Shown one piece after another: positions 7,580 to 59,592 of a DNA stretch of 64,000 nucleotides. Every line of letters begins with the position of its first letter. Position 1 is the first letter of the stretch. The translations under genes and the position numbers were made by a program. The stretch lies in the IMG/VR virus record IMGVR_UViG_3300045988_101454, positions 36,916 through 100,915 of that record. One strand, written 5' to 3'. Under the pieces are notes generated by a model. That model was not told where the DNA came from and did no database searches. It saw only the letters and a list, made by a program, of their open reading frames with translations. Source of the DNA: a virus.

Positions 7580-7600
7580 ACTCTATATTTTCGTTAATAA
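7580..7600 (-). promoter_or_regulatory. conserved 5' leader, copy 4 of 4
   Basis: TTATTAACGAAAATATAGAGT directly upstream of ATG 7579. Confidence 0.45.
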
Positions 7601-9367: not shown

Positions 9368-9499
9368 TTTATTTATACTTTATATGTTTAACATGTAGGG
9401 CAAATGCCCCGAAAATGTGGGACAATCAGGCTTTTTTGCACAGAGACATGCAATATAGGAAAGAATGTCTGCGCCTCGGGCTTGCTTTCTGCCTTTGCC

Positions 9500-18955: not shown

Positions 18956-19345
18956 CTAACGTTCGTCACCGTCGCCAGCAATGACATTTCGTTGCTTGCG
19001 TGAGGCAAGTTTTGCGAGGTTTTCTTCAGCCACTTCTTCGAGCGTGACACCCATCACCTTGGCAAGTCCGGCAGTCTGCCAGAGAATATCGCCGATTTCA
19101 GAGAGCATAAGATGACGTTCCTCGTCAGATACGTTCCACACCTGCGTATGAAGGATTTTGCCTTCCTCGTCGCGTTGTGTTGTGGTTATATGCAGCTTGC
19201 CTTTACGCATGTGCTTGCCGGCTTTGCTTGCAAACTCGCCAACCTCACCTACGAGATTGGCAAGCATATAGAAAAGATTGTCGCTCTCAGGCATACAAGT
19301 ACTCATAGCCTTGTCCTGATATTCGTTTAATGTTAAATTTGCCAT
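18956..19345 (-). CDS. mazG: MazG-like nucleotide pyrophosphohydrolase
   Basis: ..LANLVGEVGEFASKAGKHMRK.. and ..LSEIGDILWQTAGLAKVMG.. (EExxE and ExxD helices); stop is TAG followed by TAA. Confidence 0.75.
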   Translation of the reverse strand: MANLTLNEYQDKAMSTCMPESDNLFYMLANLVGEVGEFASKAGKHMRKGKLHITTTQRDEEGKILHTQVWNVSDEERHLMLSEIGDILWQTAGLAKVMGVTLEEVAEENLAKLASRKQRNVIAGDGDER

Positions 19346-19369
19346 GATATATATTGTTTGAATTGTTAA

Positions 19370-20266
19370 TTAAATTTCAAAACTCGGAATATACTGCTGC
19401 ATTCTATCATTAATGATTCTACTGATTTGTTTTGCTACGATAGAAGCGTCAGGATGTGCGATTCCAGTTTTATTGCGTAAGCGCATATCCAAAATATGCT
19501 TCCACTCACTAAGAGTGTATGTATAACCACAAATGGTATAGGTATTAAAAGTTAGGTTCCCCCTTGCATCTTCAGGTTTTAGACCTGTAAATATCAAGAA
19601 CTTATAAACCTTCTCTGCCACCCAATAGCCAAAATGAGAAGCCCAAAGTTGATAACACTTAGCTTGTTCCTCCCAATGTGGGCGACAAATTTGTACGCCA
19701 CCTTTCCGTGAAAGGTTTACATAACGTGTACTTTGTTCAGCTATACAATTTGGTGATTTTCGATTATACGACTCTCCTTGTATGCGTTGCGTTGTCACTA
19801 CCAGCGTCATGCGGATAATGGAGAATGCCTCCTCACACTTATACTTCTGAGCCTTCTCGATAAACTCGTCTTCGCTGACACCATATTGACTAAGCGCGTC
19901 CATCAGTTTCTTGTTCTCAAGCAAGAACTGCATATTAGTGCTGATCCATACTTTGTGGTTCTTTGTGGCATAGTCGATGTAGGGCGAAGCATTCAGATAC
20001 GCCCAAATGTAGTTAGGGAGACCCTTTTCATTGGGCATGAAGAAGTAGACGGTGCCGTGGCGATACATCGAGCGATGTCCGCTTTCCCAGAAGCCCTTGC
20101 AGCGTTCTTCGTCGCGATTCTGAATGAACGCTTCCACTTCCTCTTCGGTCATTCCTTCTTCGGGCTGCTTGCCCTTAGCCTTGTAGCATATTCTGCCCAC
20201 TCTTGCTATATGTTGTGCAAGAGAGGTCTGCTGCCACCATTCTACTTGTGGCTCGGTGAATTTCAT
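19370..20266 (-). CDS. thyX: ThyX-like (flavin-dependent thymidylate synthase family), divergent
   Basis: ..IARVGRICYKAKG.., ..ESGHRSMYRHGTVYF.., ..AEQSTRYV.. align to ThyX blocks, but the RHR signature reads YNRKS. Confidence 0.5.
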   Translation of the reverse strand: MKFTEPQVEWWQQTSLAQHIARVGRICYKAKGKQPEEGMTEEEVEAFIQNRDEERCKGFWESGHRSMYRHGTVYFFMPNEKGLPNYIWAYLNASPYIDYATKNHKVWISTNMQFLLENKKLMDALSQYGVSEDEFIEKAQKYKCEEAFSIIRMTLVVTTQRIQGESYNRKSPNCIAEQSTRYVNLSRKGGVQICRPHWEEQAKCYQLWASHFGYWVAEKVYKFLIFTGLKPEDARGNLTFNTYTICGYTYTLSEWKHILDMRLRNKTGIAHPDASIVAKQISRIINDRMQQYIPSFEI

Positions 20267-20321
20267 TGCTTATGAATTTTAGTTGATTATTTAATAGATA
20301 GTGCATTCTCATTCTCGATGC

Positions 20322-20819
20322 TTACACAATCATGTATCTCACACGCTGCACTTCTTCCAGCAAGTCGCTTGGCGAATCGTTGTTGAAGATTACCGCGTTG
20401 AAGAACGACAACGGCAGACGCTTGCGCTGCTTGTCACGTGCCATGCGCTCAGGAGTAACGCCTCGGCGAAGACGTGTGCGCTCTTTAGCCGACACGCAAA
20501 TATTGAACAGCTCGATGTCGGGGAATTTCTTGCACAAGGCTTTCAGACCGTCTTCGTCAATGACGTAAATAGCCTTGTCACCCACCTGCTCAACGGTGGT
20601 CCAATATTCATAGCCGCCATACTGCGTATATGCCAGCATCTTGTCATGCGGCACATCACACTTCTCCACAAAGTGATGTTCCACGCCATCAATCTCGCCT
20701 TCACGCTTCGGACGGGTGGTATAAGAACATATCACTTTATAGCCACCCAAGTCGGACAGCATCCGAGCCACAGTGTCCTTTCCTGCACCACTCGGACCGG
20801 TAATTGTTATTAGTTTCAT
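20322..20819 (-). CDS. guanylate-kinase-like nucleoside monophosphate kinase
   Basis: ATG 20817-20819; MKLITITGPSGAGKDT (P-loop) and SYTTRPKREGEIDGVEHHFV (GMP-kinase signature). Confidence 0.7.
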   Translation of the reverse strand: MKLITITGPSGAGKDTVARMLSDLGGYKVICSYTTRPKREGEIDGVEHHFVEKCDVPHDKMLAYTQYGGYEYWTTVEQVGDKAIYVIDEDGLKALCKKFPDIELFNICVSAKERTRLRRGVTPERMARDKQRKRLPLSFFNAVIFNNDSPSDLLEEVQRVRYMIV

Positions 20820-20986
20820 ATCTCGTTTTTGTTTGAATTTTAACATTTGAGGAGTCATAGGACAATCATAGAACAACCGTAAGACAACCGTAAGACACGC
20901 ATAGAACACGTTTTAGCCCTCTTTTGCCCTGTTTTCGAGATTTTGATTTAACACTTGTAAAAAGTGTTTATGCCAAATACACTGTT

Positions 20987-31283: not shown

Positions 31284-31847
31284 ATGAAAATAGGACTCAT
31301 AGACGTGGACGGACGACACGGCAAAAAGAAATGGGGAGCTACGATATACCCTAACGTGGCTCTCGGCAAGATTGCCCGTTGGCACACGATACGGGGCGAT
31401 GAAGTGGAATGGGCTCAATCTACCGACCTTTTCGACAGGCATCATTACGACATACTGTATGCCAGTAAGGTCTTTAACTTTTCGCCCGACATCGACTTTC
31501 GGCAGTTCTCCTACGACCGGTTGGAGAAGGGTGGCACTGGCTACGACATCTATAAGCGTCTGCCCGACGAGATAGACAAACTCCAGCCTCTCTACGCAAT
31601 GTACCCTTGGCTACCGAAAAATCAAGCCGTAGGCAAACTTACCGAGGGGTGCCCTAACAAATGCTTCTGGTGTGTCGTTCCGAAAAAGGAGGGACGCATA
31701 CGTCCTTACATGGATATAGAAGAAATTGCCATCGAGGGGCGCACGCATGTTGTGCTGATGGACAACAACATTCTTGCGGCGGGTGACTATGCAAAGGAAC
31801 AGCTCAAAAAGATAATCGACCTTGGTCTGCATATAGACTTCAATTAG
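31284..31847 (+). CDS. radical SAM protein, N-terminal part (ends at in-frame TAG)
   Basis: GCPNKCFWCVVPKKEG is a CxxxCxxC cluster motif; TAG at 31845-31847 is in frame with 31851-32303. Confidence 0.7.
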   Translation: MKIGLIDVDGRHGKKKWGATIYPNVALGKIARWHTIRGDEVEWAQSTDLFDRHHYDILYASKVFNFSPDIDFRQFSYDRLEKGGTGYDIYKRLPDEIDKLQPLYAMYPWLPKNQAVGKLTEGCPNKCFWCVVPKKEGRIRPYMDIEEIAIEGRTHVVLMDNNILAAGDYAKEQLKKIIDLGLHIDFN

Positions 31848-31850
31848 GCG

Positions 31851-32303
31851 ATGGACGCACGGCTTGTCACTCCGGAATATGCCGAACTGTTAGGCAAGGT
31901 GAAATGGATAGACTCCCGCATCCGCTTTGGTTGCGACACCACAGCACAGATAGCAGAGTGTGAGCGAGCCATGCAACTTATCAATGCAGCAGGATTCCGG
32001 GGCGAATACTTTCTCTATACCATGATAGGCGGCAAGAACGACGTCCGAGAATGTTACCACCGTCTGCACTACTGGTGGGAGCGACTGCAACGCTTTCGTA
32101 TGAGCCATGAAGGCAGAGCCGTGTACGCCTACGCACAACCATACCGTGACCCTACAAATCCCAATCACGCAATCCCCGAATGGCAGAAGGATATGGCCCG
32201 ATGGTGCAACAAGCGAATGATATTCTGCACCACCGACTTCAAGGACTTCATGCCAAGAAAGGGTTTCAAGTGTGAGTGGTATTTGAAGGAGTACGGAATA
32301 TAA
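31851..32303 (+). CDS. radical SAM protein, C-terminal continuation
   Basis: Same frame as 31284-31847, separated by TAG-GCG; ..HIDFN[TAG]AMDARLVTPEYAELLGKVKWIDSRIRFGCD.. Confidence 0.6.
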   Translation: MDARLVTPEYAELLGKVKWIDSRIRFGCDTTAQIAECERAMQLINAAGFRGEYFLYTMIGGKNDVRECYHRLHYWWERLQRFRMSHEGRAVYAYAQPYRDPTNPNHAIPEWQKDMARWCNKRMIFCTTDFKDFMPRKGFKCEWYLKEYGI

Positions 32304-32376
32304 GGTGATAGGTATAACCTTAGCGAAGTAATAGGCATAACATAAACTTCATAAACAAAAGCAATATACAAACGAT

Positions 32377-33066
32377 ATGATAACAGAGAATTTACAGAAA
32401 AAGATTGATCGTGCCATCCGTCTGCTTCAAGGCATACAGAAGTTATACGATGGCGAGATAGAGATAGCCTATTCGGGCGGTAAGGACTCCGACGTGATCC
32501 TTCAACTGGCGAAAGAGTCCGGCATCAAGTATCGAGCCATATACAAGAATACGACCATCGACTCGCCAGGCACGTTGGGGCACGTCAGGGAAATGGGAGT
32601 GGAGATACTGCGGGCAAGATTCCCTTTTTTTCATCTCGTGGCGCAGAAAGGATTTCCATCTCGCTATAGTCGTTTCTGTTGTGAAAAACTGAAGGAATAT
32701 AAGGTGCTCAACAAAAGCATTATCGGCGTGCGCAAGGCTGAGAGCTGGAAACGAAACGAAAGATACAACGAGCCAACAAAGTGCCGATACTACGGAGCGA
32801 AGAAAGAGGAAAATCACGTAGAACAGATTTATCCTATTCTGGAATGGACCGATGAGGACGTGCGCAACTTCATCATAGACAGAAAGTTGAAACTCGCACC
32901 CATTTATTACAATTCGGGGGGGGCAAATCGACGTGTCGAAACGTCTCGGCTGCATGTGCTGCCCTCTCGCCTCAAGGCGCAAGCGCATTATCGAGTTTCA
33001 GAAATATCCCAAGATAGCAAAGGCTTATCTCCGTGCGGGGCAACGATTTATGGAAACGCATCCTGA
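32377..33066 (+). CDS. PAPS-reductase-family (PP-loop) protein, N-terminal part; frame breaks at a G8 run
   Basis: AYSGGKDSDV PP-loop. After G8 (32916-32923) the sequence turns non-protein-like, and the real continuation is in the next frame. Confidence 0.8.
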   Translation: MITENLQKKIDRAIRLLQGIQKLYDGEIEIAYSGGKDSDVILQLAKESGIKYRAIYKNTTIDSPGTLGHVREMGVEILRARFPFFHLVAQKGFPSRYSRFCCEKLKEYKVLNKSIIGVRKAESWKRNERYNEPTKCRYYGAKKEENHVEQIYPILEWTDEDVRNFIIDRKLKLAPIYYNSGGANRRVETSRLHVLPSRLKAQAHYRVSEISQDSKGLSPCGATIYGNAS

Positions 33067-33229
33067 CAGCAAGGCGTGCCAGAGGTACGACAACGTTTAC
33101 GAATGGTTCACTCGCGACGTATTTTACAGCTCCGATACAGATTGGAACAAGGTAAGCACAGGGCTGTTCGGTAAGCCGGACTTCAAGAAGTTCTTGGAGG
33201 ACAAGTTCTGTATTGACTTGACATTATAA
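32933..33229 (+). CDS. PAPS-reductase-family protein, C-terminal part
   Basis: ..SKRLGCMCCPLAS.. is the conserved C-terminal Cys motif. This frame is open from 32924 and joins the upstream ORF if G8 becomes G7. Confidence 0.7.
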   Translation: MSKRLGCMCCPLASRRKRIIEFQKYPKIAKAYLRAGQRFMETHPDSKACQRYDNVYEWFTRDVFYSSDTDWNKVSTGLFGKPDFKKFLEDKFCIDLTL

Positions 33230-33240
33230 ACAACACAATT

Positions 33241-33522
33241 ATGATAACAATAAAAATCAAGACATGGAAGGACTGGAAGCAGGACTTCATCGATTGGGTA
33301 AAGGAGCCACGGCGCAAGACGTGCAAGGAGTATGTGGACTACATGGAGGCTTTACAAAAGAAGACTCTCTACAAAATAATAGATGACACTTGTGATAAAT
33401 ACAACAACATGCGTGAGGGTCAAATCCAAGACATCACAGAAGCAGTAGAAAAATGCGTGGCTGCTTGTGCTGAAAAAGCACGCAAGTTAATCGATGATTG
33501 TCAGCCCGCAAAATTTTTCTAA
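33241..33522 (+). CDS. hypothetical protein (93 aa)
   Basis: ORF track. Confidence 0.5.
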   Translation: MITIKIKTWKDWKQDFIDWVKEPRRKTCKEYVDYMEALQKKTLYKIIDDTCDKYNNMREGQIQDITEAVEKCVAACAEKARKLIDDCQPAKFF

Positions 33523-33563
33523 GACTGGAACTTCCATTATAAGCAACAAAAACTCTACACAAC

Positions 33564-34142
33564 ATGAACAACAACATAAAAAGAAAGGACTGGGTGGGCG
33601 GCTCGGCCGCTGTATTCAAGACGTTGGGCGCAAGCAACCATACGGATGCGGATAGACAGCGTGAGGATTACTATGCCACAGAACCGAAAGCGACGGAATG
33701 GCTGTGCAAACTGGAGCATTTTGAGGGCCGGATATTGGAGCCTTCGTGTGGCGAGGGTCACATGAGCCGGGTGTTGGAGGCAGCAGGATATGAGGTGGTG
33801 AGCCGCGACCTTGTGGATAGAGGTTACGGCGAGGTGGCTGACTTCCTCTCAATAGACAACTTGGCGTGGGACGGAAACATCATCACCAATCCGCCCTACA
33901 AATTCGCACAGCAGTTCGTTGTGAAGGCTCTGAGCATCATCCCCGAAGGAAAGAAAGTGGCGATGTTCCTTAAGCTAACTTTCCTCGAAGGCAAGGCTCG
34001 ACGCACTCTCTTCCGTTCTACCCCCCCCCATTCGTGTTTGGGTAAGCTCGTCACGACTGAAATGCGCTCCAAACGGCGACTTCAACGCTATTGTTGGCAG
34101 CGCAACGGCTTACGCATGGTTTGTATGGGAGAAAGGATATAA
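33564..34142 (+). CDS. N6-adenine DNA methyltransferase (NPPY type); frame breaks at a C9 run
   Basis: EPSCGEGHM (motif I) and IITNPPYKF (motif IV). After C9 (34021-34029) the conserved end ..IRVWVSSSRLKCAPNGDFNAIVGSATAYAWFVWEKGYKGETTVKWFN* continues in the +1 frame to TGA 34171-34173. Confidence 0.75.
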   Translation: MNNNIKRKDWVGGSAAVFKTLGASNHTDADRQREDYYATEPKATEWLCKLEHFEGRILEPSCGEGHMSRVLEAAGYEVVSRDLVDRGYGEVADFLSIDNLAWDGNIITNPPYKFAQQFVVKALSIIPEGKKVAMFLKLTFLEGKARRTLFRSTPPHSCLGKLVTTEMRSKRRLQRYCWQRNGLRMVCMGERI

Positions 34143-34193
34143 AGGCGAGACAACTGTAAAATGGTTTAACTGATAGAAAAAAAACAATAGAGC

Positions 34194-35096
34194 ATGATAG
34201 AACTGAATAAGATATATAATGAAGACTGCCAGGAAGGGATGATAGCCATTCAAGATAATTCCATAGACCTTGCGGTTGCAGACCCTCCTTACTGGAAAGT
34301 AATTGACGAGCAATGGGATTATCAATGGAGAACTGAGAGCGACTATGTGGAATGGTGCATTAAATGGATGAAGGAGGTTGCACGAGTTTTGCGTATAGGT
34401 GGAACATTCTACTGCTTTGGTTATTTCAGAATCTTAGTCTTGCTCATTCCTTACCTTGAATCACTTGGACTTGAATTAAGACAGCAAATTGTTATTGATA
34501 AGGGTATGCGTGTCGTAAGCGGACGGGCTACACGAAGATACAAGATGTTTCCTAACGTAACGGAAAGCGTACTCTTTATAATCAAAGACAACAAGAAATT
34601 TGTAAAGCCATTCCTCAAAGAACGCCAAGAAGCATTAGGACTGACTGCCAAGCAAATCAATGAAGCGTTGGGGGTTAAGTCTAATGGCGGTGGCATGTGG
34701 AGTATTTACACCGGCAATAACGTATGTGAGCAATTTCCTACGAAGGAGCTCTGGGACAAACTTTCCCATGTACTCTCCTTTGATTGTCCGTATGAAAAAG
34801 TCGCTCAGACATTCAATCCGCAAATAGGAGTTACTGACGTGTGGTCTGATATTAACTTTTATGAAGAAAAACATATCCATCCCACTCAAAAGCCGTTAAA
34901 GCTAATCCGTAGACTGATAAAAGCCAGCAGTAACGAAGGTGATATTGTCTTAGACCCGTTTTCGGGAGTGGGAACAACGCAGGTAGGCTGCGTACAGACC
35001 AAGCGCAACTTCATCGGCTTCGAGCTCAACAAGGAGTATTACGACAAGGCTTGTAAGCGCATCAAGTTGGAGCAAGCGCAGTTCACGCTGTTCTGA
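34194..35096 (+). CDS. N6/N4 DNA methyltransferase (DPPY type)
   Basis: LAVADPPYW (motif IV), HPTQKPLKLIRRLI, and the C-terminal FSGVGTT SAM motif. Confidence 0.8.
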   Translation: MIELNKIYNEDCQEGMIAIQDNSIDLAVADPPYWKVIDEQWDYQWRTESDYVEWCIKWMKEVARVLRIGGTFYCFGYFRILVLLIPYLESLGLELRQQIVIDKGMRVVSGRATRRYKMFPNVTESVLFIIKDNKKFVKPFLKERQEALGLTAKQINEALGVKSNGGGMWSIYTGNNVCEQFPTKELWDKLSHVLSFDCPYEKVAQTFNPQIGVTDVWSDINFYEEKHIHPTQKPLKLIRRLIKASSNEGDIVLDPFSGVGTTQVGCVQTKRNFIGFELNKEYYDKACKRIKLEQAQFTLF

Positions 35097-35163
35097 CAAC
35101 TCAAAAATGGATAAATCCTAATCGCCAACGGCGACAATTCAAAACGAATAAATGATATAGAGA

Positions 35164-35949
35164 ATGATAGAACTGAATAAGATATATAATGAAGACTGCC
35201 TGGAAGGCATGAAAAGGATTCTGGACGGAAGTGTGGATTGCATTGTGTGCGATTTGCCGTATGGTACTACTGCTTGTGCTTGGGATAGCGTAATTCCATT
35301 TGACAAGTTGTGGGAGCAATACAAGAGAATCATAAAGAATACTGGTGCTATAGTCTTGTTTAGTCAGCAACCTTTTACGTCTGCGCTTATCATGTCGAAC
35401 ATAGATATGTATAAGTATAATTGGATATGGAAAAAGGAGAGTGGTACTAATTACTTAAATTCCCATCATCAACCATTGAAGATTACAGAAGATATATGTG
35501 TTTTTGGAATGGCAGCAACAACTGAAAGCAAGAAAAAAAAGTATATGGAGTATCATCCTCAAATGATTAAGGGGTACAAGCCTTATGCCTGCAAAAATGG
35601 CATTCAACGAAAAGACGCTGCAATGGTACGAGGAAAATGTCAAGCGCAGACTGGAGGAGCTGTGACAGTAAGTGATGGTTCTCGTTTCCCTATAAATTTA
35701 CTCGAATTTATTCGGGATAAGGAGAAGATCCATCCCACCCAAAAGCCAGTTGCTCTTATTCAGTACCTCATCCGTACCTACTCCAACGAGGGCGACACCA
35801 TATTAGACAACTGTATGGGCAGCGGCACCACCGCCATTGCAGCTATCCGTGAAAAGCGCAACTTCATCGGCTTCGAGCTCAACAAGGAGTATTACGACAA
35901 GGCTTGCAAGCGCATCAAAATGGAGCTGGCGCAGCCTACTCTCTTCTGA
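35164..35949 (+). CDS. N6/N4 DNA methyltransferase (D-L-P-Y variant); tandem paralog
   Basis: IVCDLPYG, HPTQKPVALIQYLI, CMGSGTT. The first 37 nt and about 65 nt of the 3' end are near-identical to 34194-35096. Confidence 0.8.
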   Translation: MIELNKIYNEDCLEGMKRILDGSVDCIVCDLPYGTTACAWDSVIPFDKLWEQYKRIIKNTGAIVLFSQQPFTSALIMSNIDMYKYNWIWKKESGTNYLNSHHQPLKITEDICVFGMAATTESKKKKYMEYHPQMIKGYKPYACKNGIQRKDAAMVRGKCQAQTGGAVTVSDGSRFPINLLEFIRDKEKIHPTQKPVALIQYLIRTYSNEGDTILDNCMGSGTTAIAAIREKRNFIGFELNKEYYDKACKRIKMELAQPTLF

Positions 35950-45725: not shown

Positions 45726-48700
45726 TTAAAACGGCATATCCTCTTCCTTAACATCCGGCGCAACAGCCGTGGGTGTTGTAGCTGCAGGTGCCGACATTCG
45801 CCTACCCTGCTTGCGTGTCTTGTTGTTCTCCCAACGTTCTTTCTCCTCATCGGTGAGCTGTACGATATTACCGCCATCGTCGCGGTATGGCAGCGGGTCG
45901 GGCTGTTCGGCAAAGGCTTTTGCTATGCGCTTGAGCTCTCGGTAATCCTTTGGTATTGCGTCCTTGCCAGGGCGGTAGAAGAAGAACACGTGCTTTGACG
46001 TTTGCATGTAGCGGATGAACTTCGGCTCAATGGTGTTGTCGTTTTCCCACTCACGACCAGTGAAGTATTCCTGCGTCACCCACGCCTGTAGCTTGAAGCA
46101 CTTTCGCTGCTTATCGCTCTCGTTCTCGAAGAGGTGCTTCGGGTTGCAAGTGATAGACATATTCTCGCAATAGTCGTATATCTTCTTCTTGAAGGTGGCT
46201 CGGCTATACTCCTTACTCTTACCTTCTGAAGCATCCGCCCAGTCGCGCATAAACTCGTTGAACATATCATCCGTACATATCGGCACACCATAAACCTCGT
46301 TGCGAGAAAAGAACCACTCGAAGTAGCGGACAATGCTCTCGGTGAGCTTCTGCACCATCTGACGGCGACGCACATTGCCTTGAGGTGCAATGGCAAAAGT
46401 GTGATAGCGCATCAGGAACTGCACTGCTAAGGCGCAGAGATAGATAGTCTGGTTGCGGTCGGTGTCGGTGAGCTTTGCAGGGTCAAGCGTGAAGTTCTTC
46501 ATCACGTCCGAAGGCGATCGTGGCGGCTCGTTTTTCATAGAGTTGCCTCGTGAGAAGCGATCTGAAAAACTAACCAAGGGGAATCGACCTACGGTAGAGC
46601 CTTCATCATCCGACAATGGGTAATTGGATGTAATGACGTGCAAGGGCGATTCTTCCATTTTCAGGGAGATAGGATCGCCATACTTGCGCTCTACATTAGT
46701 GCCTCGTGTCACCTTCACATAGAAGTATTGCAAGGGGAAACCTTTAGGTCGGTCTTCCCAATGTACCGTTCTGTACTTGCCTGGATATTTCAGAATGTCG
46801 GTAAGGCAGTTTTTTGCGCTTTCAATATCCTTAAACGACTTCATATCTATAGGCAGCACGTTTACGGCTGCATCCACCACAAGATTTACCATTACCGATT
46901 TACCACTACCGCCACTCGCCTGCTTCTCGTCAGGAATCTTATCCTCAAGAAAGTAAGGGCAGATATTCTGCATACTATCCCATGAACGATAGCACAAACG
47001 CCCGATACCGGAAAGCATATTGGCAAAGTGTGCATTTTGTATAGCTATTGCATCAGGCGTAAGCGACTTCTTATTGCGCTGGGCTTCCAATTCTTCTTGC
47101 CAAAGCACGTTTGAACAACCGCGCACCACGCGAAGTATGGGCCATAGGTCTTGCTCGCGCTTGCTGCGCCACTCTACCAGCCATCGGTAGGTCTGCGCCC
47201 ACTCCATAAGGTCGGAACGCATCTGCTTGATTTCTGATAGAGAGAACACCGGCGAACCGTCCTCATTTCTCATTGCCTCTTTGGTATCAATAGACCGAAG
47301 CCTACTCTGATATTCCTCGTTTTCCTTAATAACGAAAGGAGGATCGAACACTCGCATCGTGAAGTCATACGGCTTCTTGGCGAGCGAGGGGATGAAGAAG
47401 TTGATGTCGTCGTAAGACACCGTGCGGATGCTGTCGGGCGTTATCTTCAATGCCACATTATTGAAGTAGAAATACTCTGTCTTGGCATCGAACGCATCAG
47501 CAAAGTTTATCACCATACTCTGCAAACCTCCCGCAGACTTCTCGTTAAACGTCTTGTCTATCATGTTTGCGCAATCGGACATCATACGTCGCTCATTGTC
47601 GTTGTGCCGCCAAGCCTGTTCCACATAGTCCATCAATAGAGTTTTTGCAGCTTGCATTATGCTCTTTGCGTCGATATACTCCACAAAACATTTGTTCAGG
47701 TGGATATATTGGCCCACGAGGTCGGTGCTCTCCGGGTCTATCATACGATAATAACCGTGACAAGTCATAAAGAGCCATAATCTTGTGGGCGACACCTTGC
47801 AGGTAGGCGGCTTTAGTTTTCCACTTCGAGGGTCACGCGGATATTCTATCTCAAATGGCTCCGTGTTTCTTGCTCCACGCAATCGGGAGTAAAGCGGAAG
47901 GCGAAGGTCATGATCAAACTGAAAGTTTTCTTCAGCGTTCATGGTATATGTCAACAGATAGTCGCGCACCGACCTTGGGGAACATCCGAACAGCCATTGC
48001 CAGCGTCGGCAATAACGTGAGCGGAAACCTTCGGGCAGCATTGCATAATACAATGAACTAAACTTGGTGCATATAGCTCCACAGTCGCGCTGTGAGGCTA
48101 TGTCGTTGGGGTATAGGATAATGACGTGCTCGGCAAAGCGGTTTAATTTCTGATATTGCCCGGCTTTAAAGTCGAGTTTCTCCAGCTTCCACTCGCCACG
48201 CTCAATATACCAAAAGCTTCTCCGTCCAATGGAGAAGGCCACATGATACCAACAGTAATTTTGGAAGTGCTGGTCTTCTGCCTTGTCAAGGCGCAAGGAA
48301 CGCATAGCATAATACACGCTCAATGCGTCTTCGGGTGTGCGGCAAAAAACGATGTTGCGAGCCTTTATCTCGGCGGTGGGGATTTTTTCATCCACCTTTT
48401 TGAACGTACCTTTCGGTACTCCGTCCTTGGTCTCATTCTCTTCCCACACCTCCTTGGTCTCAGTATATTTCTCTTCGGGGTCGTACTTTGCAATGGCCGC
48501 ATGAACGGCTGTGTTGTCGCTCTTGCGCTGATCCATCGCATATACAAACACATTGTCGCCCATGAGCCACTTACTCACCTTCCTCACGCTATGCTCCTCG
48601 GCGGTAGAGAACACTATCGGGTCACTCCCTGCCATTGCCGGACGGAAGAAACATCCGTATGAATTTTGCGGACCTATCTCTTGCGAGGCGAAGCATACGA

Positions 48701-49391
48701 ACAGCGGATTCCAGGGTGTGCCATGGATTATCTCGCTCACATGCTGTCCGTCGCGTATCACGTCGGGCAGCGTCACGCTCAGCAGGGAGTATATGCGGAA
48801 GTCCTTGTTGAGCATGTCAGGTGTAAACGTACAGCCAAAGCCGAAACGAGGCAATCCTTTATCAAGCGTCACCTCACACCCAAGGGCTGCAAGCTCTTGT
48901 GGCGAGAAGTCGGTCTTCGGCATAAAAGAGAACGTCTCGATGGTCTGCTGCGCCTGAGTACGGTAGTCCATGCGAGCAAACACCTCTGGGAAGGCACGGC
49001 GCACCTCGTCGGTATCGCCATACACGTCCCTTACGAGTCTTTGGCAGATGCGCTGAAGACTATATCCGTGCATCGGAAGGTTCATCTTGACTGCATACAG
49101 CTCGATGGCTCCGTAGCCGGTCTTACCAGTGCGGGTGCATTTCCATTTTACGGCACCATGTTCTGCCAATCGGTTGTCATCAACGCCCACGCCCGAATAC
49201 AGTCCACCTCGTTCATTCTCATAGATAATGAAGTGAGGTGTCTGCTTGACATCGGCATCCGCGTCCTGTCCCTTCTTGCAGATAGGACAGAAGCACGCGG
49301 TCTGACCCTCGATGCGCTGCTCGTTTGCGGGCTTCACGAGAAGGTGCAGGTCGATGTTGGCGAGGCGATTTATGATAGGATGATAGAACAT
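45726..49391 (-). CDS. primase/helicase-like replication protein (P-loop NTPase, D5/P4-like)
   Basis: N-terminal CxxC zinc motif (CFCPICKKG), central Walker A ASGGSGKSV, 1221 aa, acidic tail ..VKEEDMPF*. Confidence 0.55.
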   Translation of the reverse strand: MFYHPIINRLANIDLHLLVKPANEQRIEGQTACFCPICKKGQDADADVKQTPHFIIYENERGGLYSGVGVDDNRLAEHGAVKWKCTRTGKTGYGAIELYAVKMNLPMHGYSLQRICQRLVRDVYGDTDEVRRAFPEVFARMDYRTQAQQTIETFSFMPKTDFSPQELAALGCEVTLDKGLPRFGFGCTFTPDMLNKDFRIYSLLSVTLPDVIRDGQHVSEIIHGTPWNPLFVCFASQEIGPQNSYGCFFRPAMAGSDPIVFSTAEEHSVRKVSKWLMGDNVFVYAMDQRKSDNTAVHAAIAKYDPEEKYTETKEVWEENETKDGVPKGTFKKVDEKIPTAEIKARNIVFCRTPEDALSVYYAMRSLRLDKAEDQHFQNYCWYHVAFSIGRRSFWYIERGEWKLEKLDFKAGQYQKLNRFAEHVIILYPNDIASQRDCGAICTKFSSLYYAMLPEGFRSRYCRRWQWLFGCSPRSVRDYLLTYTMNAEENFQFDHDLRLPLYSRLRGARNTEPFEIEYPRDPRSGKLKPPTCKVSPTRLWLFMTCHGYYRMIDPESTDLVGQYIHLNKCFVEYIDAKSIMQAAKTLLMDYVEQAWRHNDNERRMMSDCANMIDKTFNEKSAGGLQSMVINFADAFDAKTEYFYFNNVALKITPDSIRTVSYDDINFFIPSLAKKPYDFTMRVFDPPFVIKENEEYQSRLRSIDTKEAMRNEDGSPVFSLSEIKQMRSDLMEWAQTYRWLVEWRSKREQDLWPILRVVRGCSNVLWQEELEAQRNKKSLTPDAIAIQNAHFANMLSGIGRLCYRSWDSMQNICPYFLEDKIPDEKQASGGSGKSVMVNLVVDAAVNVLPIDMKSFKDIESAKNCLTDILKYPGKYRTVHWEDRPKGFPLQYFYVKVTRGTNVERKYGDPISLKMEESPLHVITSNYPLSDDEGSTVGRFPLVSFSDRFSRGNSMKNEPPRSPSDVMKNFTLDPAKLTDTDRNQTIYLCALAVQFLMRYHTFAIAPQGNVRRRQMVQKLTESIVRYFEWFFSRNEVYGVPICTDDMFNEFMRDWADASEGKSKEYSRATFKKKIYDYCENMSITCNPKHLFENESDKQRKCFKLQAWVTQEYFTGREWENDNTIEPKFIRYMQTSKHVFFFYRPGKDAIPKDYRELKRIAKAFAEQPDPLPYRDDGGNIVQLTDEEKERWENNKTRKQGRRMSAPAATTPTAVAPDVKEEDMPF

Positions 49392-50683: not shown

Positions 50684-51181
50684 TTATTTGTTAGTTGTAT
50701 AAGAAGTAAGAAGTTTTCGTATGCCTTCCTTCTCCCACGGTTTCCAGTTGTCGGTGGTAAAACGCTTTATCACTGTTGCCGCACTCATTCCTCGCTCGTT
50801 CATGTAAGCGATGAACTTGTTGCACATACCGGCGTTCACTCGTTTTAAACAAGAATAGAATATACCAGGCTCGTTGCTCTGCGCCAAGGTATATAGATAC
50901 CCCTTGTCGCCCTTCACCATCTGAGGATTTTCCTCGTCCACATATTCTAACAATGGCTGCGACACATCAGTCAATAGTAAGAATTGACGTTTACACTCAT
51001 CGATGCCTTCTATCTCCCATTCAGAAAATCCCTTCTGAAAGAAACGGAGATAAAAAGTGGCGAGAGTAAAGCCTTTCTTTGCCAAAGTCATATACAGAGA
51101 CTTCTTGTCTTCAACCGACATGTCATCTGTCTGTAATGGTGTGTATGATTTTGTGATTTTTTCAACGATTTCCTTTGTCAT
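50684..51181 (-). CDS. hypothetical protein (165 aa)
   Basis: ORF track; -7 box TATATTTG (51208-51215) 27 nt upstream. Confidence 0.5.
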   Translation of the reverse strand: MTKEIVEKITKSYTPLQTDDMSVEDKKSLYMTLAKKGFTLATFYLRFFQKGFSEWEIEGIDECKRQFLLLTDVSQPLLEYVDEENPQMVKGDKGYLYTLAQSNEPGIFYSCLKRVNAGMCNKFIAYMNERGMSAATVIKRFTTDNWKPWEKEGIRKLLTSYTTNK

Positions 51182-53708: not shown

Positions 53709-54878
53709 TCATTTATCCGATAAAGAATAATTCCATTTAACAGTCTTGCCAAACACTTTGATGGAACATTTTTTTACGTGCTTTATAACCTCGTCGGTCA
53801 AACATCTCTCCACTTTTTCGCATTGCTCACGGCTTGCTTTTAAGAGAATAGTACTGCCATCGTAGGACACAAACCCAACCTTGCGCAGTTCGTCTCCTGC
53901 CTCGCCAACAAGCATAGCCAATAGCTGCTGCCATTCTCGCTCGCCAGGCTTCACTTCTTCAGCAAAGAGAGTGAGCTGTTGCTCCTGTTGTCTTTGTTGC
54001 ATCGCATGCTGCATCTGCTCGATGGTGTCATATATTGTAAACTCTATATAAGCAGGATTACCAACCTTTCGCTTGCCATTATAGATAGGCTCATACGACA
54101 CGCATACATCAAGCAATCCGTCTTTTCGCAAACGGTTGATGTCATTGATACTCGTTTCAATGACATTCTTCTTGAACTGGGAGAACTTAGGATAGGCTTC
54201 TTTCTTTTCTTTTCCGTCTTTTCGCGGTCGTCCCGATCTTTCGTCGGTGCCTTCGGTAATCTTGCCCAACATACCCAGATACGTTTTTATATCTAACACG
54301 GTCAAGCGCACCACCCTATGCTTCCAGTGTTCCGATTTCTTATGCAGATAATAATACATCATGGGCATACGCTCAATCTGTCCTATTCGGGCTATATCAG
54401 CAGGATGGCGTACATATCCCTGACTCATGTCAAACACATAGTCCACGACTTCGGGATTCAGTCTGAAAGACACACCTGTACCTCCTTCAAAAGAAATATT
54501 GGCGTGCGTAAAGATATTAAAAGCCTTAACAGAAGCCTTGCCATCGCTATCCTCACTTGGAGCATCAACGGTTAAATTCAAAACCTCCTGGACAGCAGCA
54601 CGCGCTACATTGTAGTTGGCTATATCCATGCCCAGCTCTGCATACGACATAACGAACTCCGGCATACCGTTGTTCTTTTCCGCTTCGGAAAAAAGGGGAC
54701 GCGGCACCTTCGGGGCTTTTCGTAAGTCACTACCAAAGAAATGACGCACATAGCCCTGTAGGTGTTCGCTGACCTTAGTCAATACCGTTTGCTGAAGCAA
54801 CGACAGGTTCTTAGAGAACTTAGTGTAAGCAAAGGGCGTACTGATATATTGTTGTGGTAAATGTTTGTCTCTTTCCAT
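53709..54878 (-). CDS. plasmid-type replication initiator (Rep)
   Basis: 389-aa ORF directly downstream of an iteron and AT-rich field. The N-terminus ..YTKFSKNLSLLQQTVLTKVSEHL resembles RepB/Rep_3-type initiators. Confidence 0.55.
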   Translation of the reverse strand: MERDKHLPQQYISTPFAYTKFSKNLSLLQQTVLTKVSEHLQGYVRHFFGSDLRKAPKVPRPLFSEAEKNNGMPEFVMSYAELGMDIANYNVARAAVQEVLNLTVDAPSEDSDGKASVKAFNIFTHANISFEGGTGVSFRLNPEVVDYVFDMSQGYVRHPADIARIGQIERMPMMYYYLHKKSEHWKHRVVRLTVLDIKTYLGMLGKITEGTDERSGRPRKDGKEKKEAYPKFSQFKKNVIETSINDINRLRKDGLLDVCVSYEPIYNGKRKVGNPAYIEFTIYDTIEQMQHAMQQRQQEQQLTLFAEEVKPGEREWQQLLAMLVGEAGDELRKVGFVSYDGSTILLKASREQCEKVERCLTDEVIKHVKKCSIKVFGKTVKWNYSLSDK

Positions 54879-54910
54879 AATAGATACTTTTATACAGTTT
54901 CGGTAAAGAA

Positions 54911-55160
54911 GTCATAATGTTTTTTACCTCAACCGCCCTTTTTAGGGGTATTTGGTCATAATGTTTTTTACCTCGCAATTTTTCTAACTGCTATAATATA
55001 TAGGAGTATAAGTGCATTTTTCGTCTTCCCTAAATAAAACAAACAAAGTATTTTATTATGTTTATTTTAAATAATAGGTAAAAAACATTATGACCTTTTC
55101 ACCTCCTAATACCTTTTAAGGTAAAAAACATTATGACCTTTTCACCAAGGTAAAAAACTT
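54911..55160. repeat. iteron field / putative origin of replication
   Basis: GTCATAATGTTTTTTACCTC at 54911 and 54955 (direct). The inverted form AGGTAAAAAACATTATGACCTTTTCACC is at 55076 and 55119, with a partial copy at 55148. A 100-nt AT-rich spacer lies between. Confidence 0.7.
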
Positions 55161-55170
55161 TAGTAGGATT

Positions 55171-55638
55171 TTACCTTACGCATTTTCTCTCTACGAACTC
55201 GTGTATCGCCTGTAACGCAAGATCCTTCAGTGTGCGACCCGTCTGTATCTTCAGCATCATAAGCTGCATATAATCGTCCATCGGCACATTCACAACAATA
55301 CCGTTTTCGGTCTTCATACCATTCAATGCAAAGCGACTTGCCGTGTTCTTGCTCTTGCGATTTTTTGTCGCTGTCACAGGCTTGTTTGTGACTTCAGTCT
55401 GCTGCTCCTTACTTTCAAGAGGAGCAGATGGTTTTGAATCTTCTTGTTGAGTGTCGGATGTTTCTGTTATGGATGTTGTTTCGTCCTGCTTATTCTCGTC
55501 TTCCGGTTTCGATGTTGCAGATGTGTTCTCTGTAGTAAGTGCATCACTATCTGCCTCCGTTTTACTCTCACTATGCTCTCTTATATCTTCTGAAGTCTTG
55601 GCTACCTTAGTTTCGCCAAACACAAATTTTTTTGCCAT
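55171..55638 (-). CDS. ParG/RHH-like centromere-binding protein candidate
   Basis: Immediately downstream of parA. Disordered acidic Ser/Thr-rich N-terminus; C-terminal ..IVVNVPMDDYMQLMMLKIQTGRTLKDLALQAIHEFVERK is strand-helix-helix-like. Confidence 0.45.
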   Translation of the reverse strand: MAKKFVFGETKVAKTSEDIREHSESKTEADSDALTTENTSATSKPEDENKQDETTSITETSDTQQEDSKPSAPLESKEQQTEVTNKPVTATKNRKSKNTASRFALNGMKTENGIVVNVPMDDYMQLMMLKIQTGRTLKDLALQAIHEFVERKCVR

Positions 55639-55650
55639 ATCTTCAATTTT

Positions 55651-56493
55651 TTAATCCTCAGTATAAGTATCAACTATCTCTTGCGCAAAAGCCTCATAGC
55701 TCTTCGCAGCGTCACATTCAGGCGCATACGTAAAGATGTCCTGCATCATCGCCTGGGCTTCCACAATCTTTGTACGGCGCGGAATCTCGGTCTTGAACAC
55801 ATACTCTCCGTATTCGTCGTCGATATGCTGCGAGAATCCGGCACTCGCCTTGGTTCGCTTATCAACCATAACTTTCAGTAGTCCGCGAAGTTCAAGGTTA
55901 GGATTAATCTCAGCCTTCACCTCCTCTGCCCAACGTATAACACTCGACGAACCGAACGTAGGCAATGCCTCAAGCTGCATTGGGATGATAATGCCGGTAG
56001 CCACCGACATGGCGTTCTTCGTTACAAGGTTCATGGCTGGAGGGCAATCGATGATGATATAGTCGAAGGCTTCTATCACACTCTGCTCACCACCCTGCTC
56101 CTCAGTCAGCGTAACGGGGATAGCAAACAGCTTCTGTAACACCTTCAAAGGATTAAGCTCACGCAGCAAAAACGGTTCCACGCCCAACATATCCTCCGAC
56201 GATGGTGCAATATACAAGTTGCCGTGATAGTCCTGCTCGTCAACACTCACCTGGTACACGGGCATGGCTGTCTTGTTCACCATAGCCTCGTACATAGTGC
56301 CGTGCTTGTCCTCACGCTCGCGCCAACCGCACAACAACGACACGTTAGCCACCTGAGCATCAAGGTCGATAATCAGTACTCTGGTTTCTGGGTTCAGCTT
56401 GATCAATCCGCAAGCCAAGTTGTGAGCTGTTGTGCTCTTACCTACTCCGCCTTTGTCGTTCACAATGGCGAGAACTTCTCTGAGTCTTTCCAT
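55651..56493 (-). CDS. parA: ParA-family partition ATPase
   Basis: Deviant Walker A LAIVNDKGGVGKSTTAHNLA; 280 aa. Confidence 0.9.
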   Translation of the reverse strand: MERLREVLAIVNDKGGVGKSTTAHNLACGLIKLNPETRVLIIDLDAQVANVSLLCGWREREDKHGTMYEAMVNKTAMPVYQVSVDEQDYHGNLYIAPSSEDMLGVEPFLLRELNPLKVLQKLFAIPVTLTEEQGGEQSVIEAFDYIIIDCPPAMNLVTKNAMSVATGIIIPMQLEALPTFGSSSVIRWAEEVKAEINPNLELRGLLKVMVDKRTKASAGFSQHIDDEYGEYVFKTEIPRRTKIVEAQAMMQDIFTYAPECDAAKSYEAFAQEIVDTYTED

Positions 56494-56534
56494 ATTCTTT
56501 AAGTATTTAAATGTTAATAATATCTATCTAAATA

Positions 56535-56885
56535 CATAAGTACGAACATATCTAAATATCTACGAACCTACGAACGTATAAAAGTACGAACGTATATGAA
56601 TACGTAAATACGTGAGTACGTCAGTATCTTTGTATCACGTTGCAAATTTAAGAATTATAATTCATATATCCAAACTTTTTAGCCTAAATATTTATCTACC
56701 TACGTAGATAACTACCAACGTACCTATTTATTTATTTACCTATCTATATAGATAAATAAGAACGTAAATAAATAAGTAGGTATATAAATAGGTAAATTAA
56801 TACGTTTATACTTACGTATAAACGTACATACGTATATACGTAAGTACAAAAGTACTTAAATAAGAAAATATCTTAGTACGAAAGT
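56535..56885. repeat. centromere-like field of short TACGAAC/TACGTA repeats flanking the parA promoter
   Basis: At least 15 copies of (G/T/A)TACG(A/T)A-type motifs on both sides of the promoter element 56638-56662. Confidence 0.55.
56638..56662 (-). promoter_or_regulatory. parA promoter element (TAAATTTG -7 box)
   Basis: CGTTGCAAATTTAAGAATTATAATT, 24/25 identical to 22093-22117. Confidence 0.55.
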
Positions 56886-56966
56886 ATAGATCTGTTTCCA
56901 TTCGCCATTTATCGTTATGTCCACATGCTCCTCTTCGCTCGTTCTCTCCGTTCGGATGGGCAGTAT

Positions 56967-58092: not shown

Positions 58093-59592
58093 TTATTCCT
58101 TTGTCAGTCCTCCCAGCATCGGCAGGAAGAACACCGCAGCTCCCGCGAACGCCAGCATCACGACTCCCGTTGACACAGCCATCAGCACTGCCAGTACACC
58201 CGCCAACACCGTCTTCACGCCCATACCCTTGTCTTCCCTTGCCGTGTTGTCTTCGCGTTTCTCTCGCAGCGTCGGCTCGCCTACCTGCGGATAGTTACGC
58301 TTGCGCTTTGGCTTTGGCTGGGGTGTAGATTCCGGCTGGGGTATAGGTTCCGGTTCTGCTTCTGCTTCCTGCTCCTGACTCTGATTAATCTCCGTCTCTA
58401 TAACGCAAGGTTCCTCTACCTTTCCATCCACACACACGATAACATCGCCGTGCAGGCTAACCTCAATCTTGCAACCTGGCACAAGGGCTTTCTGGTTGAA
58501 GGTATTCTCGCTGCCGCAGTTGGCATGAGAAAAACGGTGTCCGTTCATTTCCACTTCGTCAAAGTCGGCTACGTATGTTATCTTGCCAGTCTTCTCGCCT
58601 ACCGTGGTATGGTGTCCGCGATATGTAGTAACGGCCTTGAATACGGGACGAAACTTAAATGCGCAGTTATACTTTGCGTCATGGTCTGTCTGTCCGATGC
58701 GGTCGTAATAGTCGTAATTGTCAAACTTGAACACAAGTCCGTCGGTAGGGTAGGGCAGCTTCTCGCGCTCCACCTCTGCAGCGCACACGATGCTCTCTAT
58801 GTCCTGCTCCAGTTCTGCATCCGTCTTTTCAAGATTGAGAGCCGACACAAAGCCCGAAGTCTTGAAGCCATTACGTTCCAAGGCTTGCATCGCCGGCATG
58901 TGCCTTATCACGCCGTCCATAATGAGGCGGAACGGATGAAACTCCAGGCGCTTGCACTCGTCCTTTACAGCCACCTTCTTCGCCATGATGCCGTTGCTCG
59001 TAGAACGAGGTGACTTGCCAGCCTTGCTATAACGGGCAAACGCCCCAAGCGAGATAATTACCTCGCCTCTCACCTCCACTCGGTCGTACTGGCTCCATAC
59101 GTCCACATGGGCGGGTACGCCCTGCACATGCTTGATATGGTCCAGGCAATCGTTACCAAACAGCTCCTTGCCGTGTCCGTAGGTGGCTTCAGCCAACACT
59201 CCCTGGCGATATACCAGACTCACGGTCTCGCCGTCAAATTTCCACTCCACATCCACCTCCGTGCCCTTGCCGTTGATGTTGGCAGCTTTCTGTTGTGCTC
59301 TCAGGTATTTCACCACCACCTTGGCATCATGCAGCTTCTTCATCGACAGACAAGCCGTACGACGTGCCACGGTGCGCTTGCCGTTGCCGTTCTCGCTGTA
59401 ACACTGCTGAGTAGGTGAGTCAGGCAATACCTCGTCCGCATGCTGCTCTTCGTACTCCTGCAAGGCAAAATACATCGCGTCGTATTCCTTGTCGCTGATG
59501 GTCGGACAGTTCAGCCCGAAATATCTATAGTCGTGCATCTTAACTACGTCCACCAACGCACGATAATCGTCAAAATTCTTAATCTTAGTCAT
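58093..59592 (-). CDS. ligA: NAD-dependent (LigA-type) DNA ligase core with a C-terminal TM anchor
   Basis: ..CPTISDKEYDAMY..LPDSPTQ.. (domain Ia), EWKFDGETVSL (KxDG), ..ATYGHGKELFGND... No Zn-finger, HhH or BRCT region. C-terminal VLAGVLAVLMAVSTGVVMLAFAGAAVFFLPMLGG. Confidence 0.65.
   Translation of the reverse strand: MTKIKNFDDYRALVDVVKMHDYRYFGLNCPTISDKEYDAMYFALQEYEEQHADEVLPDSPTQQCYSENGNGKRTVARRTACLSMKKLHDAKVVVKYLRAQQKAANINGKGTEVDVEWKFDGETVSLVYRQGVLAEATYGHGKELFGNDCLDHIKHVQGVPAHVDVWSQYDRVEVRGEVIISLGAFARYSKAGKSPRSTSNGIMAKKVAVKDECKRLEFHPFRLIMDGVIRHMPAMQALERNGFKTSGFVSALNLEKTDAELEQDIESIVCAAEVEREKLPYPTDGLVFKFDNYDYYDRIGQTDHDAKYNCAFKFRPVFKAVTTYRGHHTTVGEKTGKITYVADFDEVEMNGHRFSHANCGSENTFNQKALVPGCKIEVSLHGDVIVCVDGKVEEPCVIETEINQSQEQEAEAEPEPIPQPESTPQPKPKRKRNYPQVGEPTLREKREDNTAREDKGMGVKTVLAGVLAVLMAVSTGVVMLAFAGAAVFFLPMLGGLTKE

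Follow-up and report, generated by a model that had tools for sequence, protein, structure and literature searches.

A plasmid-type replication and partition module in a ~100-kb tailed phage of probable Prevotella/Segatella hosts

Does a replication and partition locus inside a tailed-phage genome keep that phage in its host as a plasmid? The question is raised by positions 53709 to 56892 of a 64,000-nt stretch of viral DNA (IMG/VR record IMGVR_UViG_3300045988_101454, positions 36,916 to 100,915). This stretch, hereafter the window, makes up ~64% of an element of ~100 kb, and coordinates are positions in the window unless another sequence is named. The element is a tailed phage of the human gut that probably has a Prevotella/Segatella host. 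An earlier reading of the DNA (the original prediction) had seen here the layout of a low-copy plasmid maintenance region within a phage genome and had proposed an extrachromosomal prophage. The components that it named passed the available tests, the small protein on fold likeness only, and the extrachromosomal reading is supported. We consider it likely that this ~100-kb tailed phage of Prevotellaceae has here a working maintenance module of plasmid type, built from two independent cassettes. Its most probable form in the host is that of a low-copy plasmid, not chromosomally inserted.

The initiator and its candidate origin

Three open reading frames (ORFs), all on the minus strand, have exactly the coordinates that the original prediction had given for its initiator, small protein and ATPase. 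They are listed here with the repeats that surround them.

53709-54878, minus strand: rep, predicted iteron-type replication initiator (389 aa; Pfam Rep3_C, Segatella RepB homology, AlphaFold2 model)
54911-54973, plus strand: rep-proximal iteron pair (54911-54929 and 54955-54973; 44-bp spacing; perfect 19-20-nt copies)
54974-55075, no strand: spacer between the iteron sets, with the AT-rich core at 55029-55075 (10-17% GC; candidate DNA-unwinding element, DUE)
55076-55166, minus strand: distal iteron set, inverted (55076-55094 and 55119-55137, 43-bp spacing, plus a degenerate copy at 55148-55166)
55171-55638, minus strand: candidate centromere-binding protein, CBP (155 aa; alignment, AlphaFold2 model, fold matches, covariation)
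55651-56493, minus strand: parA, ParA/MinD-class partition ATPase (280 aa; Pfam, PHROG and NCBIfam matches)
56521-56640, minus strand: promoter-proximal repeat array, 15 phased octamers (TACG-N4 boxes; operator/centromere candidate)
56640-56690, minus strand: unphased gap with the putative par promoter (-7 box TAAATTTG at 56643-56650 inside the conserved core TTATAATTCTTAAATTTGCAAC)
56685-56892, minus strand: promoter-distal repeat array, 26 phased octamers, consensus nnTA(C/T)(G/A)TA (centromere candidate)

Classification of Rep and ParA with profile models had been proposed as a check, and for Rep it bore out the predicted initiator. Pfam Rep3_C, the second winged-helix (WH2) domain of Rep_3 initiators, matched at 23.7 bits (curated cut-off 21.1), and PHROG 4402 ('replication initiation protein') matched at 3e-5. 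All full-length relatives that tblastn found (27-30% identity) lie on Segatella/Prevotella plasmids, whose annotation calls them RepB-family initiators; tblastn against ~50,000 deposited phage genomes returned no relative. An alignment of 11 family members (A1) contained 55 invariant columns, and Rep3_C was detected in nine of them. Rep3_N (WH1, PF01051) was detected in three of the 11, all plasmid relatives, and is present throughout the plasmid clade; the phage Rep gave no detectable Pfam WH1 signal.

An AlphaFold2 model of Rep was built on a 31-sequence alignment and reached a mean predicted local distance difference test score (pLDDT) of 73. Its top 29 PDB matches were all F-plasmid RepE or the Rep-iteron-DUE complex 8aan (probability 1.0, E 5e-5 to 1e-3, TM(target) 0.40-0.49), after which the E-value leaps to 3e-2. 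Sequence identity to RepE-type structures in the structural alignments was 12-15%. Because a search of PDB sequences with the Rep family profile gave chance matches only, the relationship with RepE is remote and lies at the level of the fold. On the Pfam WH2 match, the Segatella RepB homology and the predicted fold, we place Rep in the iteron-binding Rep_3/RepE class. Its modelled architecture is a tandem WH1-WH2 core (~residues 20-300) followed by a C-terminal domain of ~80-110 aa.

The C-terminal domain (~residues 310-388, ~53712-53950) is phage-like even in relatives whose WH1-WH2 part is plasmid-like (L025, L026 and L027). Where the DNA-binding part has been replaced, the C-terminal ~110 residues are still phage-like, at 33-52% identity. 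The model of this domain showed weak fold likeness (E 0.1-0.3) to chain 4tps_B of the complex of SirA with DnaA domain I, and to the C-terminal domain of DNA polymerase III tau, and the domain may serve in replisome recruitment.

The iteron and AT-rich field predicted beside rep was also found. Between rep and the small gene, GTCATAATGTTTTTTACCT occurs in four mismatch-free copies, at 54911 and 54955 on the plus strand and at 55076 and 55119 on the minus strand (chance expectation 0.01 from shuffles), with a fifth, degenerate copy at 55148. Copies lie 43-44 bp apart within each pair, and the two opposed sets face each other across a 102-bp spacer that holds the 10-17% GC core. The rep-proximal pair lies 33-95 bp upstream of the rep start, is placed in the same way relative to rep in the relatives, and probably doubles as the rep operator.

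Across the relatives, four iteron sequences go with four types of Rep DNA-binding domain, and three related variants share the 3' end TTTTTACCT. Iteron GGTCATAATGTTTTTTACCT accompanies the window-type Rep, GGTACTAATGTTTTTTACCT the Rep of the 60% type and TACTAAATCTTTTTACCT the Rep type in L028. An unrelated 22-bp iteron, ACCTACGGATTTGTTTAC..., goes with relatives whose winged-helix (WH) domains resemble Segatella plasmid RepB more; in some phage relatives these domains are closer to plasmid RepB than to the Rep of the window. All types keep the same order upstream of rep, with a direct set and, beyond an AT-rich core, an inverted one.

Some relatives carry additional repeats upstream of the origin. 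In L021, a 269-bp tandem array (9467-9735) consists of about four and a quarter 63-bp units with an iteron-like copy in each; in L028, three copies of a 33-37-nt iteron-containing segment lie 73 bp apart at 15763-15941. These arrays recall copy-control iteron arrays such as P1 incA.

The closest known replicons are those of plasmids and LEEs of the Segatella copri complex (NZ_CP085934, NZ_CP137558 and NZ_CP137560; Blanco-Miguez et al. 2023, PMC10635906), whose RepB is homologous to the phage Rep over its full length. The S. copri DSM 18205 plasmid NZ_CP085934 has the same gene order as the window (ParA, small ORF, RepB), a ParA 40% identical to that of the phage, and a repeat upstream of RepB that shares a TTTACCT core with the phage iterons. 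The Segatella replicons differ in carrying metabolic cargo and no phage genes, and the region upstream of their parA shows only weak 8-bp periodicity (z = 3.8). Because these relatives sit on experimentally closed circular extrachromosomal elements (PMC10635906), this Rep family drives autonomous replicons in the host clade.

More distantly, Rep resembles F-plasmid RepE, P1 RepA and R6K pi (Pfam Rep_3) in its tandem winged-helix fold, in iterons near rep and in an AT-rich region. Unlike these systems, the phage has two opposed iteron sets around an AT core instead of one direct array, and no DnaA box was found within 54700-55300. Its Rep has an extra C-terminal domain in comparison with the RepE class. 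The P1 plasmid prophage uses a Rep_3-type replicon, and the 'P1/N15-like logic' of the original prediction held for replication, which is P1-like in its Rep_3-class initiator and iterons. It did not hold for partition, which is probably of type Ib (below), and nothing N15-like (protelomerase) was seen.

The origin would work as a theta-type replicon. Rep monomers would bind the 19-20-nt iterons flanking the AT-rich core, open the core and recruit a replisome, with primase, clamp and ligase supplied by the phage. The two rep-proximal iterons would overlap the rep promoter region and so provide autorepression and copy control.

The partition cassette and its covariation among relatives

The predicted ParA ATPase with a deviant Walker A motif was readily confirmed. 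The 280-aa protein matched Pfam AAA_31 (2e-34) and CbiA (1e-15), PHROG 164 'ParA-like partition protein' (8e-47) and NCBIfam ParA_partition (1e-21), with the deviant Walker A KGGVGKST at residues 13-20. These matches identify a ParA/MinD-class ATPase unambiguously by sequence. The AAA_31 and CbiA matches begin at residues 6-8, and because the domain match starts at residue 6 the protein has no N-terminal DNA-binding helix-turn-helix (HTH) extension.

The small gene between parA and the origin had been described as ribbon-helix-helix (RHH)-like. A gene stands at the predicted place and its product has fold-level likeness to RHH proteins; the E-values are non-significant, and no sequence-family match was obtained. 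Single-sequence and profile searches of Pfam, PHROGs, NCBIfam and PDB sequences returned nothing but low-complexity noise, and none of its 534 homologues is annotated. An alignment (A2) of the family showed a near-invariant N-terminal peptide, MAKKFVFGETKVAKTSEEIREH (residues 1-22), a hypervariable, acidic, Ser/Thr/Pro-rich low-complexity linker of ~80 aa with many indels, and a conserved C-terminus of ~48 residues (domain ~108-152) that reads G-K-T-E-N-G-I-V-V-N-V-P-M-D-D-Y-M-Q-L-M-M-L-K-I-Q-T-G-R-T-L-K-D-L-A-L-Q-A-I-H-E-F-V-E-R. In the AlphaFold2 model the N-terminus and linker are disordered, and helices 119-132 and 136-152 (pLDDT ~85) follow an extended, strand-like GIVVNVP segment. As modelled, the C-terminus looks as an RHH monomer would without its dimer partner. 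In Foldseek, 20 of the 21 matches listed were RHH or RHH-containing proteins, all at a non-significant E of at least 1.5 (ORF56/CopG, CopA-SO, AmrZ, Arc, MatP, PutA, AtaR, TacA, KacA and HicB), several of them fitting at 1.6-2.0 Å over ~40 residues. We take the RHH assignment as likely, short of established.

The field of short repeats predicted upstream of parA proved stronger than described. Within 56521-56892, 60 of the 72 TA dinucleotides share one phase with a period of 4 nt, and the autocorrelation reaches z = +8 to +10 at all multiples of 4 nt, with somewhat larger values at 8 and 16. On the strand of parA, the field resolves into 15 + 26 octamers (41) with the consensus nnTA(C/T)(G/A)TA, the rest being degenerate, and an unphased gap of ~50 nt separates the two arrays. 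Bacteroidota promoters have the -7 consensus TAnnTTTG, and TAAATTTG in the gap (56643-56650, minus strand) matches it. The surrounding promoter core TTATAATTCTTAAATTTGCAAC is kept in all relatives, whatever the array type. The heptamer TACGAAC was considered as a simple array motif and rejected, having no window-wide enrichment; the signal lies in the phasing and not in one heptamer.

The module stays syntenic in dozens of relatives (~90-105 kb) known from metagenomes, and in every relative for which the region was available the ParA - small protein - Rep order follows the ligase gene. The cassettes are mixed among these genomes. In some, Rep is 84% and ParA 43% identical to the window proteins, and in others Rep is 60% and ParA 91% identical. 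To judge from these sequences, the Rep and Par cassettes have been shuffled independently, as expected of incompatibility determinants.

Within the Par cassette the parts also vary separately. Every relative has, upstream of parA and on the flanks of the conserved promoter core, an array with an 8-bp period. Whether the unit of this array resembles TACG/GTA, ACAAA or TTGTTTGA tracks the type of the small protein's C-terminal (RHH) domain. The N-terminal peptide classes of the small protein track the ParA type. A natural chimera, L024, combines a type-B ParA and a type-B N-terminal peptide with a type-A-like RHH domain, and its array was found to be of type A, as had been predicted beforehand (CGTA/TACG 6+6, ACAAA 1). 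In L005, which has the same ParA type as L024, the counts were CGTA/TACG 2+1 and ACAAA 13. This pattern of sequences would be expected if the RHH domain reads the array and the N-terminal peptide addresses ParA.

The cassette is most like TP228 ParF-ParG-parH and pSM19035 delta/omega, which share with it a small ParA lacking the HTH extension and a small protein encoded downstream, with a flexible N-terminal tail and a C-terminal RHH domain (both putative in the phage). In TP228, parH comprises 20 degenerate ACTC boxes with 4-bp AT-rich spacers upstream of parFG and is coated by the RHH protein ParG, whose flexible N-terminal tail is needed to load and stimulate ParF (PMC3130281). As in TP228, the phage has 4-bp boxes and 4-bp spacers (an 8-bp period) upstream of the operon, forming a candidate operator and centromere. 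It differs in having 41 octamers versus 20 and TACG/TA-type boxes versus ACTC, and its candidate CBP is unlike ParG in its ~80-aa acidic low-complexity linker and in lacking detectable sequence similarity to any solved RHH protein. The phage ParA, at 280 aa, is longer than TP228 ParF (~206 aa). The partition system is probably of type Ib, not the type Ia of P1 and N15.

By this analogy, RHH dimers of the small protein would coat the 41 octamers that flank the par promoter, which would both build the partition complex and repress the operon. The N-terminal peptide would contact and activate the ParA ATPase, and ParA would move plasmid copies apart over the nucleoid. With both cassettes at work, the phage genome could pass to daughter cells as a circular plasmid prophage of low copy number, with no need to integrate.

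Genome form, integrase search and competing explanations

Phage genes had been reported alongside the module, and those for virion formation and lysis are readily recognised. The window encodes an 1858-aa tape measure protein, an S49 head-maturation protease, a large terminase (TerL) and a holin-like protein; lysis genes were found as well. The terminase is ~30% identical to annotated TerL of Microcystis phages, and the best TerL match is ~32%. A megablast search of window positions 40-64 kb gave no match in ~50,000 deposited phage genomes or 72,000 plasmids.

Contigs that carry the exact Rep reach 100,915 bp, and Reps 99% identical to it lie on contigs of 89-120 kb. A relative with 84% identity (RefSeq 'replication initiation protein [uncultured Prevotella sp.]') was found on contigs of 97.5, 101.0, 101.3, 101.9, 104.0 and 104.6 kb. 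Contigs with this Rep come from different samples, carry it at very different offsets, and none exceeds 200 kb. Lengths converge on ~101 kb (97-104.5 kb), the contigs are circularly permuted, and host flanks are absent. Tiling with IMG/VR contig 100224, which is collinear with the window, gave a map that closes on itself. Such a map indicates a circular or circularly permuted genome, which fits both a plasmid and a terminally redundant packaged phage genome. Direct terminal repeats (DTRs) were sought in contig 150887, the one relative with both contig ends, with a negative result.

Physical termini were considered at a site where the contigs of many relatives end, and judged less likely than an assembly break. 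The site coincides with a ~30-copy tandem array of a 10-bp unit that is absent from this element. In L151, ~30 tandem copies of TAGCCACAGA span 7288-7589 (~45.4-45.7 kb of IMG/VR contig 100224) and six copies of a 15-mer span 8241-8325, both near XRE regulator genes. The TAGCCACAGA array or its immediate neighbourhood is where at least four IMG/VR contigs stop, and nine more end within 1-3 kb of the neighbouring 190-aa gene (unmapped). An assembly break is one possible reading of the array, a genuine terminus or pac region another.

No integrase had been seen in the 64 kb, and the precomputed Pfam annotation of contigs identical to the window likewise shows none. The original prediction had proposed extending the search, and none was found in ~10 kb beyond each edge of the window in the exact element. 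These flanks encode methyltransferases, RtcB, an acetyltransferase, a lysozyme and an HTH protein on the opposite strand. What remains of relative 100224 outside these regions (41 ORFs over 29 kb) was covered in full, and the 35 kb that remain of the closer relative 150887 were covered for ORFs of 150 aa or more; neither arc had an integrase, recombinase, transposase or protelomerase domain. The genes found in them are for tail-fibre-like proteins, a portal-like protein, lysis and two XRE-type regulators. A match to Phage_int_SAM_5 in a 165-aa ORF (50684-51181) was rejected as an integrase: at E 0.0096 it fell below the cut-off, and a catalytic domain was lacking.

Taken together, structural and packaging genes stand with replication and partition genes on one replicon, the combination by which phage-plasmids are defined (Pfeifer et al. 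2021, PMC7969092). The regions read hold no integrase domain and the longest contigs are 89-120 kb, as the same definition expects of elements that do not integrate. We infer the lifestyle from gene content, synteny, covariation and the absence of integrase in those regions; the phage-plasmid reading is well supported, not proven.

Several points weigh against it. The integrase search covered all but ~17 kb of the exact element, where an integrase is formally possible. No DnaA box (TTATCCACA with at most one mismatch) was found in 54700-55300; such boxes are common in origins of this kind, not universal. The RHH assignment depends on non-significant fold scores, and XRE-type HTH genes are the sole pointer to a lysogeny switch. 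As to carriage in a host, no isolate genome with the element was found, and close matches in genome collections were short contigs of metagenome-assembled genomes only. An iteron-binding initiator, taken alone, also fits the origin of a purely lytic phage, as in lambda O/ori.

The last point leads to the strongest competing explanation, namely that the Rep-iteron unit is a vegetative (lytic) origin of the lambda O/ori-lambda kind and that the ParA pair, for example, positions replicating genomes or serves a carrier state in a virulent or pseudolysogenic phage. The element was found in virome-derived catalogues (IMG/VR), no lysogen is known, and no other initiator was recognised in a genome that has its own primase, clamp, ligase and exonuclease, so that Rep may serve lytic replication too. 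We nevertheless regard this explanation as unlikely. A complete cassette of ParA, CBP and centromere that is universal and diversifies in specificity only makes sense for inheritance through division, Segatella plasmids carry the same Rep-ParA gene order, and the divergently oriented XRE regulators suggest a switch.

It is considerably less probable that the element is a plasmid with a defective prophage or phage-derived cargo that has lost virion formation. The ORFs for the tape measure, TerL, portal-like, protease, tail-fibre-like and lysis proteins are long and intact, although their functions are predicted from sequence and many other ORFs are unannotated. Virion genes are 70-95% identical across ~160 IMG/VR contigs of similar size, and this conservation indicates purifying selection on them.

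Slightly less probable still is a temperate phage that integrates, with an integrase encoded in the ~17 kb unread or too divergent to recognise, and with rep-par as a passenger from a Segatella plasmid. The arcs of two relatives are complete and have no integrase-like domain, no contig with an identical or near-identical Rep is longer than 120 kb or has host flanks, and the module occurs throughout the phage group in conserved synteny, where a passenger would be patchy. That the Rep family can be chromosomal is suggested by a distant (29%) relative on a 3.14-Mb contig of S. copri H-2632 (L189, NZ_JAVSCC010000001.1). This chromosome-sized contig may reflect an integrated extrachromosomal element or a wrong assembly.

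An N15-like linear plasmid prophage (no protelomerase) and a P1 relative (no DNA or Rep match in the ~50,000 deposited phages, and a ParA without the type Ia N-terminal extension) were rejected, and the arcs of the two relatives hold neither of the hallmark domains, Cre-type recombinase or protelomerase. A low-copy plasmid form of the phage is the reading that we prefer.

Neighbouring genes and significance

The replication and nucleotide metabolism genes of the window comprise a PriCT_2 primase, a beta-clamp, an NAD-dependent DNA ligase, a DnaQ-like exonuclease, ThyX, MazG and guanylate kinase, the last three forming a trio beside the primase (18956-20909, minus strand). In the ligase (58093-59592, minus strand, 499 aa), the adenylation and OB domains, which reach to ~residue 394, are the only ones present. 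A Glu/Pro-rich linker replaces the usual Zn-finger, helix-hairpin-helix and BRCT domains and is followed by a hydrophobic stretch, VLAGVLAVLMAVSTGVVMLAFAGAAVFFLPMLGGL, that resembles one or two transmembrane helices; a membrane-anchored ligase beside a partition module, if that is what the sequence encodes, would be unusual. Between the beta-clamp and the exonuclease lies a 1221-aa ORF (45726-49391, minus strand) that is kept in all relatives. It gave no Pfam or PDB-sequence match and only a weak match to a PHROG of unknown function; a replicative polymerase or helicase of very divergent sequence is a possibility. An attempt to annotate a 463-aa ORF of the replication region gave nothing.

Several DNA methyltransferases are encoded in the window. 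A plus-strand block at 31284-35949 contains a radical-SAM protein (PHROG 9298), a PAPS-reductase-like protein and two paralogous N6/N4 DNA methyltransferases, which points to a gene cluster for DNA modification (anti-restriction). At ~35,025, between the methyltransferase genes 34194-35096 and 35164-35949, two scaffolds from the same assembly meet. A full-length LysR-type regulator (11441-12367, minus strand; HTH_1 and LysR_substrate, PHROG 3736 at 5e-47) lies among the head genes and is unusual cargo. RtcB RNA ligase and a GNAT acetyltransferase are encoded ~3-5 kb past the left edge of the window in the same element (L049/L050); phage RtcB is often tied to tRNA repair as a counter-defence. 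No tRNA genes were found.

The original prediction had called such elements little described for Bacteroidota, which is only partly true. Carjivirus communis (crAssphage) has been described as a phage-plasmid on the basis of its RepL genes, with a linear genome, DTRs and no ParA partition system (PMC10983915). Some 'Quimbyviridae' have a RepA-like winged HTH protein next to a helicase, for which episomal replication was proposed, and 'Flandersviridae' were noted as lacking partition genes (PMC8008677). Like crAssphage and 'Quimbyviridae', the phage studied here is from gut Bacteroidota, has no integrase in the regions read and is proposed to be episomal through plasmid-type replication proteins; its backbone is unrelated to theirs. 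Pfeifer et al. cautioned that detection of phage-plasmids in Bacteroides falls short (PMC7969092), and a 2026 mining survey lists 'Bacteroida' among the common predicted phage-plasmid hosts (PMC13221032). Phage-plasmids are therefore already known as a kind and few are described in this host clade; no paper on a Prevotella/Segatella phage-plasmid was found in the literature.

The interest of the element lies in its host clade, its abundance, the completeness of the module and the informative swaps of cassettes and domains. Few phages of the keystone gut bacteria Prevotella and Segatella have been cultured, and the genetic tools for these hosts are poor. We give an even chance to the wider proposal that the element represents a large, prevalent and undescribed family of ~90-105-kb circular phage-plasmids in human-gut Prevotella/Segatella. 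In such a family, Rep DNA-binding domains would be exchanged with host replicons, and the N-terminal peptide and RHH domain of the CBP would be swapped independently. These modular swaps would make incompatibility groups by which related phage-plasmids and host plasmids could coexist, and the 3.2-kb module would be a ready-made low-copy replicon for genetic work in Segatella, which is hard to manipulate.

The natural domain swaps offer a clean comparative dissection of type Ib partition, in which the N-terminal peptide goes with ParA and the RHH domain with the centromere. If plasmid persistence is true, lifestyle predictors based on integrases would misclassify this abundant ~100-kb lineage, the phage would add to the extrachromosomal gene pool of Segatella and to plasmid incompatibility dynamics, and the compact rep-par module could be a stable low-copy vector.

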